From a phage, in sequence record PZ445429.1: a stretch of 64,000 nucleotides of DNA. One strand, 5' to 3'. A model generated the notes under the pieces. It was not told the origin of the DNA. It saw only the letters and a list, made by a program, of their open reading frames with translations, and did no database searches. Made by a program: the position numbers and the translations under genes. Shown here one piece after another: positions 8,972 through 9,550 of this stretch (the first letter of the stretch is position 1; every line of letters begins with the position of its first letter).

Positions 8972-9550
8972 ATGACAGCCATAGTAGCATTTAAATATAA
9001 AGATAAAGTATACTTAGCTGGTGATCGTATGGGTTCTAATGGCTATACGAAACTGCTGGTTAAAAATCCGAAAGTATTCAAAATCTCTGATGATTTGTAC
9101 TTCGGATACACTAGTTCCTTCTACATGGGACAATTACTAGAGCATAGCTTTACTGTACCACCACGTTTAGCAGATATTTCTGATGATAAATATTTATATA
9201 CGGAAATAGTACCTAAATTACGTGATATGTTTAACCAGAAAGATTTTGGCGAAAAGAAAAATGAAAAATATGCTGAACCTAATCTGGGACAATTTATTAT
9301 GCTCTACAAAGGAAGAATCTTTATTTTCCAATCTAATGCTTCTATTCTAGAAGTTGAATATGCCGGTGTAGGCTGTGGAGGAGAAGATGTACTTTCCAGT
9401 ATTCGTACAGGTTTAGCTATTGCGGATTGTCGAGCCACAGATTTAGATGTAGATGATATATTTGAAATCATTGATCTGGCTTTTACGCATTGTGCAGATT
9501 ATATGTGTGGTGTATCTTCTCAACATGATGTTTTAGTAATTGGAGAATAA
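8972..9550 (+). CDS. Ntn-hydrolase, HslV/proteasome-beta-like (putative)
   Basis: N-terminal M-TAIVAFKYKDKVYLAGDRMGS parallels HslV [19 protein letters not shown] (Thr1 nucleophile after Met removal); RBS GAAGGA. Confidence 0.4.
   Translation: MTAIVAFKYKDKVYLAGDRMGSNGYTKLLVKNPKVFKISDDLYFGYTSSFYMGQLLEHSFTVPPRLADISDDKYLYTEIVPKLRDMFNQKDFGEKKNEKYAEPNLGQFIMLYKGRIFIFQSNASILEVEYAGVGCGGEDVLSSIRTGLAIADCRATDLDVDDIFEIIDLAFTHCADYMCGVSSQHDVLVIGE

Follow-up and report, generated by a model that had tools for sequence, protein, structure and literature searches.

Fuchs, Alva and Lupas (Bioinformatics 2021, PMC8665760) distinguished 22 new subfamilies of proteasome-like proteins; the radiation of their 'group I' starts from BPH, the Betaproteobacterial proteasome homologue, and from HslV (ClpQ), the peptidase of the ATP-dependent protease HslUV. 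Two subfamilies, PPH and AAH, were described in phages, and a co-occurring AAA+ interactor was not found there. PPH, which was called 'the first true viral member', is approximately 140 amino acids (aa) long and lacks helix H2. HslV genes without HslU have also been remarked upon in a jumbo phage paper (PMC7823757). The stretch analysed here, referred to as the window, comprises 64,000 nucleotides of phage DNA (record PZ445429.1). It belongs to a T5-like phage of the genus Epseptimavirus and carries a proteasome-like gene at 8972-9550 (+), which begins with ATG and encodes 192 aa. The most probable reading, at roughly 75%, is that this gene encodes a partner-independent, AAH-type N-terminal-threonine hydrolase which is expressed early, is cotranscribed with the neighbouring genes ORF89 and rnh, and serves an accessory role.

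The N-terminus quoted in the first-pass annotation of this DNA, MTAIVAFKYKDKVYLAGDRMGS, matches the translation of the open reading frame (ORF) 8972-9550 exactly. The 2.8 kb around the gene are 100% identical to Salmonella phages 118970_sal2, 100268_sal2 and Sepoy. NC_031933.1 is the identical reference genome, i.e. the same phage as the window, and was used for whole-genome annotation checks. The 192-aa product matches the Pfam Proteasome family PF00227 with 38.5 bits (gathering cut-off 22.4), residues 2-189 aligning to profile positions 5-188/189. It is also matched by PHROG 1040, 'peptidase HslV family' (E 1.9e-21). Both matches place the similarity well above chance level.

An AlphaFold2 model built with 18 homologs has a pLDDT (predicted local distance difference test) of 89.7 and a pTM (predicted template modelling score) of 0.87. 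DSSP assigns strands to residues 4-46, 108-133 and 185-190 and four helices, H1 (50-59), H2 (71-89), H3 (137-153) and H4 (160-177); the C-terminal helix H5 is absent. This order of strands and helices is that of a proteasome beta or HslV subunit, i.e. the alpha-beta-beta-alpha sandwich of the N-terminal nucleophile (Ntn) hydrolases. The top Foldseek TM-scores, 0.70/0.72, are to Cupriavidus BPH, and in structure comparison the protein is as close to BPH and 20S beta as it is to HslV. By profile match and by model, the protein is thus a member of the proteasome superfamily. The first-pass annotation, which had proposed an HslV/proteasome-like Ntn hydrolase, hinged on prediction of such a fold; the fold is predicted, with a PF00227 match above cut-off, a confident model and matches to BPH, HslV and 20S beta, so that part of the reading stands.

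The specific name HslV fares less well. In a scan of NCBIfam with E values up to 10, no HslV model matched; the only matches were 20S beta equivalogs at 13-15 bits, against cut-offs of 192-224 for the bacterial and archaeal models. When the family profile is compared with the PDB, HslV is the best sequence match (E ~1e-10), and this match covers only positions ~1-48 and 104-177; the middle third, which contains H1 and H2, is not aligned. The alignment of the same profile to BPH is nearly full length (E 3.6e-7). Identity to HslV structures is 14-19%. On sequence comparison, the phage protein is not an HslV ortholog.

It also differs from the other described proteasome homologs. It resembles 20S beta (MEROPS T1, PF00227) in its full-length Pfam match, its fold and its Thr1/Asp17/Lys33 set; unlike 20S beta, it lacks a propeptide, a partner alpha subunit and the C-terminal H5, and has Cys in place of Ser129. 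Identity to BPH (PDB 5ovs, 5ovu) is 13-20%. In BPH, H2 is followed by a long and strongly acidic pore loop, whereas the corresponding loop of the phage protein, KDFGEKKNEKYAEPNL, has 16 residues and a net charge of 0. PPH is likewise phage-borne and falls in the same PHROG 1040; the phage protein is not a PPH, since it is 192 aa long and contains H2 whereas PPH is much shorter and lacks this helix.

The best fit is AAH. The phage protein shares with AAH a length of approximately 180-190 aa and the compact group I architecture, with no propeptide, H1 to H4, no insertions and neither S12 nor H5 (from DSSP of the model and the 'MT' start), as well as the Thr1/Asp17/Lys33 set. It is also alike in distribution: AAH occurs in Actinobacteria and Alphaproteobacteria, in part of the Firmicutes and in numerous phages. 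AAH has no known AAA+ partner. When one genome of each bacterial species was scanned with a motif, 391 relatives emerged. Taxonomy was taken from the 80 top-ranking ones, most of which are from Streptomyces and Alphaproteobacteria (Azospirillum, Mesorhizobium, Devosia, Rhizobium and Ensifer); these 80 also include Polyangiaceae, Paraburkholderia and a few Firmicutes. This is the AAH pattern of Actinobacteria and Alphaproteobacteria, with phages in addition. Because compact architecture and distribution both fit, the phage protein most probably belongs to the AAH subfamily.

Some relatives depart from the compact form or have company. The representatives P0031, P0036, P0041, P0047, P0061 and P0074 are 315-388 aa long; their proteasome-like domain is N-terminal (1 to ~180) and is followed by an uncharacterised extension of 130-200 aa. 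In Aeromonas phage 4L372D (locus L004) the AAH-type homolog at 4001-4552 is followed by a second proteasome homolog at 4570-5454. In Vibrio phage R16F (locus L006) the corresponding genes lie at 4001-4642 and 4645-4989. The second homolog starts with (V/M)TTIAYKNG..., has a ~140-aa core and an acidic C-terminal extension, and is consistent with the PPH/RPC type. PHROG 1040, which merges both types, matches it with 175 bits. The two products of such a tandem pair could form a two-subunit complex.

Active-site residues were surveyed in close homologs and in 168 sequences, including 148 representatives from an exhaustive profile search. All 168 have Thr2, Asp18, Lys34, Gly45, Gly106, Gly134 and Gly136. 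The catalytic codons lie at 8975-8977 (Thr2), 9023-9025 (Asp18) and 9071-9073 (Lys34). In HMMER alignments of the family profile with E. coli and Thermotoga maritima HslV, T2, D18 and K34 are in register with T1, D17 and K33 of HslV. The N-terminal parallel to HslV drawn in the first-pass annotation is therefore real: the family pattern M-T-x-I-V...G-D...K aligns with the E. coli protein. The Thr directly behind the initiator Met, which was noted there, is likewise borne out. 'MT' is the start of 141 of the 148 representatives, which indicates a family without a propeptide; removal of the initiator Met alone would therefore expose the nucleophile. The specificity of methionine aminopeptidase is known and would fit removal of Met before Thr.

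Other positions are particular to the family or to the clade. Where HslV has GFAGGTADAF, the family has the invariant motif G-[YF]-T-[ST]-S-F-[RY]-M-G-Q. The T5-like clade differs from the family consensus in having Ala for Cys at residue 3 and Tyr for Arg at residue 51, and has short insertions at 98-100 and 154-158.

Several points weigh against a classical, partner-independent AAH-type hydrolase. The family 'G-C-G' pairs with 'G-S-G' of HslV, so that the equivalent of Ser129 is Cys135 (codon 9374-9376); across the family, 104 sequences have Cys and 53 have Ser at this position. The equivalent of the oxyanion-hole residue Gly47 is probably Ser48, as extrapolated from the alignment (Ser in 86 sequences, Thr in 57 and Gly in only 9). 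A conserved Asp166/Ser169 pair is not evident in the alignment of the 168 sequences. Due to these three differences, the chemistry could differ from that of the classical proteasome. Connectase demonstrates that proteasome homologs can be monomeric ligases. The AAH label (reference sequence WP_035979212, KEGG OC.661151) was set by distribution and architecture. Finally, the literature found on phage HslV-like or AAH proteins consists of genome descriptions and the 2021 bioinformatic survey, with no biochemical characterisation.

These differences leave room for a non-degradative enzyme. Such an enzyme might carry out specific processing, act as a connectase-like transpeptidase or ligase, or be an amidase on a non-protein substrate; it might be a monomer or dimer. 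The motif peculiar to the family and the Cys in place of Ser129 would fit this. Against it, the fold is much nearer to the ring peptidases than to connectase, and we consider this explanation unlikely.

The first-pass annotation reported no obvious HslU partner in the window, and this holds for the entire genome: the annotation of NC_031933.1 lists neither HslU nor any other AAA+ unfoldase. The neighbourhoods of homologs, in 63 viral and 41 bacterial locus groups, contained none either. Matches to AAA_19 and AAA_30 near homologs were considered as partner ATPases and rejected, as they are PhoH-type P-loop proteins and not unfoldases. A jumbo-phage 'protease' two genes upstream of a homolog was considered as a paralog and rejected on an hhalign probability of 0.1%. 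In the window itself, a search of all six-frame ORFs with the family hidden Markov model found no second proteasome-like paralog; only 8972-9550 matches.

Neighbouring genes do not point to a partner either. BLAST clustering found no family of neighbours in more than 10 of 99 independent locus groups. Among the two genes on each side of viral homologs, no Pfam family was present more than three times in 117 (portal, TerL, thymidylate synthase), and PhoH was present twice. Bacterial neighbours (n=150) include response regulators (6) and Hsp20 (3). Conserved neighbours are too weak a signal to serve as a functional clue. As to a role in defence or anti-defence, PADLOC gave no match for the proteasome-like protein or for the DUF3307 protein encoded upstream of it, and the matches for ORF89 were insignificant.

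A subunit without its own unfoldase might borrow one from the host. It could replace or join host HslV on HslU, or use another AAA+ protein, and so redirect ATP-dependent degradation for the phage. The hosts E. coli and Salmonella possess HslUV, and no PDB entry matches the sequence profile better than HslV. In addition, this phage encodes a ClpP-like subunit but neither ClpX nor ClpA, so that orphan protease subunits may be a recurrent theme. However, curated HslV models fail, and the HslV alignment is partial and of low identity. Lys28 of HslV, which we take to bind the HslU C-terminus, corresponds to Leu in the phage protein; this presumed change at the HslU-binding position also speaks against hijacking. 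Moreover, the family is abundant in Actinobacteria, from which HslV and HslU are absent (Table 1, PMC8665760), so that dependence on HslU cannot be a general property of the family. Use of the host unfoldase is accordingly very unlikely.

The ClpP-like gene lies at 37572-38171 (+) and encodes 199 aa. Residues 41-137 match CLP_protease PF00574 (E 3.4e-7), and RefSeq names the product 'ATP-dependent protease'. Its putative catalytic residues are a candidate Ser in 'GPSASAY' and a candidate His in 'HPHATLMGH'. ClpX, ClpA or another unfoldase for it was not found in the phage.

The gene is common. A tblastn search found relatives in 195 phage records, and 124 T5-like records carry one at an identity of at least 90%. 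More distant relatives are present in Enterobacter phage KKP_3711 (56% identity), in Aeromonas phages (42%) and in jumbo phages of the 121Q/PBECO4 type (~30%), with others in Vibrio, Moorella and Salicola phages. The protein is at least 99% identical in more than 100 phage records, and an identical protein is encoded on 55 public contigs, e.g. ACB97546.1 of phage EPS7. In IMG/VR, 367 stretches match one motif; a metagenome profile search found 6,704 clusters (50% identity) at E <=1e-3, of which 836 were at E <=1e-30.

Databases name the identical protein 'peptidase HslV family' or 'ATP-dependent protease'; other records use 'proteasome subunit-like protein' or 'HslV family peptidase'. The first-pass annotation had called a phage-encoded, partnerless peptidase of this type unusual. 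This finds no support, given relatives in so many phage records, existing annotations and published phage homologs without a partner. The class of phage proteasome homologs is already known and annotated. What is new here is the anatomy of the cassette and promoter, together with natural variants in which the gene is present or absent.

The gene is located directly behind a predicted sigma-70 early promoter of the T5 P27 type at 8913-8941 (+), with a -35 hexamer TTGCTT (8913-8918), a 17-nt spacer and a -10 hexamer TATAAT (8936-8941). This segment aligns almost base for base to the annotated 'putative early promoter T5P27' of T5, and its hexamers are common to P26 and P25. The call rests on this alignment to annotated T5 promoters and not on a consensus scan. 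A generic promoter scan missed the site; this can be explained by the -35 hexamer, which agrees with TTGACA at only three of six positions. A Shine-Dalgarno sequence, AAGGA, can be read at 8960-8964 (+), 7 nt 5' of the ATG. Early expression is inferred from the homology of the promoter.

Upstream of the promoter, a GC-rich, terminator-like hairpin, AATAGCCC-TTCG-GGGCTATT, can be read from the sequence at 8878-8897 (+), 3' of the DUF3307 gene. A terminator scan did not call it because its T-run is too weak. The same hairpin lies upstream of P27 in T5 and marks the 5' edge of the shared promoter block. The DUF3307 gene itself, at 8520-8873 (+), encodes a membrane protein (PF11750, E 4.8e-12; PHROG 2470, 'moron/auxiliary/host takeover'). 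It is present in Salmonella phage S126, which lacks the proteasome-like gene, and absent from T5; it thus comes and goes independently of the proteasome-like gene. The placement of the proteasome-like gene after thyA in the first-pass annotation is correct insofar as it lies downstream of thyA (7662-8516). It does not follow directly, as the DUF3307 gene, the hairpin and the promoter intervene.

Downstream, a gap of 2 nt separates the stop of the proteasome-like gene from ORF89 at 9553-9822 (+), which has no assigned function (PHROG 13270) and lies in the same predicted transcription unit. ORF89 was considered as a dedicated partner and rejected, since it is retained in S126. The rnh gene (ribonuclease H) at 9822-10298 (+), placed by mapping the RefSeq annotation to the window, is the last gene of the P27-type unit according to the T5 layout. 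Its start is at 9822 in RefSeq, overlapping the stop of ORF89, and at a TTG at 9810 in the mechanical ORF list. The order in the window is therefore promoter, proteasome-like gene, ORF89 and rnh.

Comparison with related phages defines an exchangeable cassette at 8948-9552 (+), from blastn boundaries and the S126 and T5 annotations. On either side of it, up to 8947 and from 9553 onwards, S126 is ~99% identical to the window. In its slot (1849-2120 of locus L003, corresponding to window 8948-9552) it has an unrelated ORF of ~85 aa (MGLFKKKVYLTQSQERRFLALSQYYHLPFDHFIERALEQFLEKE..., with a Pro-rich C-terminus); nothing is annotated in this slot in its RefSeq record. In T5, neither the proteasome-like gene nor ORF89 is present, and P27 directly precedes rnh. 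The 56%-identical KKP_3711 homolog occupies the same slot downstream of thymidylate synthase. Approximately 28% of the T5-like records that match the region (124/439) carry the gene. Since S126 has another ORF, T5 has none and KKP_3711 has its homolog in the same slot, sequence comparison indicates that the gene is an exchangeable accessory cassette which immediately follows an early promoter and occupies a site that has long been variable in Markadamsvirinae genomes.

A gene which T5 and S126 can do without, and which only a minority of T5-like records carry, might be a drifting passenger. Alternatively, its product could be a catalytically inert decoy or scaffold, e.g. a dominant-negative subunit which poisons host HslV rings. 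The dispensability of the gene would fit either case. In contrast, the catalytic Thr, Asp and Lys are invariant in a family of thousands of clusters, near-identity is maintained across more than 100 phage records, and a homolog of only 56% identity retains the same slot. Invariant catalytic residues, high identity and a conserved slot argue for purifying selection on a catalytic function, and an inert product is highly improbable.

The reading as an AAH-type hydrolase starts from features that are directly supported: the gene and its fold, the residues of the active site, the missing partner, the dispensable, accessory nature of the gene and the homology of its promoter. From these we infer the following course of events. 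The gene would be transcribed early from the P27-type promoter, jointly with ORF89 and rnh. Host methionine aminopeptidase would trim Met1 and so leave Thr at position 1 of the mature protein. This Thr1 would serve as the nucleophile, and Lys33 and Asp17 would relay protons, the arrangement found in 20S beta and HslV. The protein is, with high confidence, a catalytically competent proteasome-family Ntn hydrolase.

The later steps are less firm. Stacked rings would probably be formed, by analogy with BPH and HslV, and no dedicated ATPase would be needed; for ring assembly and independence of ATP our confidence is moderate. BPH is a tetradecamer of heptameric rings, and HslV a dodecamer made up of two hexameric rings and activated by HslU. 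Targets may be peptides, proteins in an unfolded state, or specific proteins of the host or the phage. The gene itself is accessory: the T5-type lytic cycle proceeds without it.

A more specialised role would be that of an early protease for host takeover or counter-defence, which destroys selected host proteins such as defence or stress factors. It would act either as an ATP-independent ring or via a borrowed host unfoldase, and the tandem pair of the Aeromonas and Vibrio phages would then be a two-subunit 'phage proteasome'. As a whole, this proposal is improbable. If it is true, the natural cassette variants (118970_sal2 versus S126) make it directly testable in E. coli and Salmonella.

Other genes of the early region and of related phages may be recorded here. 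A PhoH-like P-loop ATPase gene lies 1-7 kb from the proteasome homolog in T5-like, Aeromonas, Vibrio and 121Q-like jumbo phages (window 1908-2669 (+); 1110-1895 in L004; 6816-8255 in locus L005; 2466-3252 in L006). Of the 63 viral locus groups scanned, only 2 have PhoH as one of the two genes immediately upstream, and its proximity may simply be due to a region of early or nucleotide-metabolism genes that these phages share. The jumbo phage also has Sir2 and Nudix genes directly adjacent. NC_031933.1 (2188-3850 and 23934-25668 of locus L001) encodes two Sir2-like proteins, a nicotinamide-nucleotide adenylyltransferase and a PnuC-like transporter of nicotinamide mononucleotide. This set of Sir2, adenylyltransferase and PnuC genes, related to nicotinamide adenine dinucleotide, is placed in the same early region as the proteasome-like gene. 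The RefSeq record also contains implausible PHROG-derived names on short ORFs, e.g. 'tail length tape measure protein' for 70-80 aa.

The finding adds no new kind of element; it refines the annotation from 'HslV' to an AAH-type homolog, and 'AAH-type, HslU-independent proteasome homolog' is the better name. The gene sits in a genetically tractable phage of E. coli and Salmonella, of which near-isogenic natural variants lack the gene or carry another cassette. It consequently offers a convenient entry point to a widespread, uncharacterised family of thousands of clusters.
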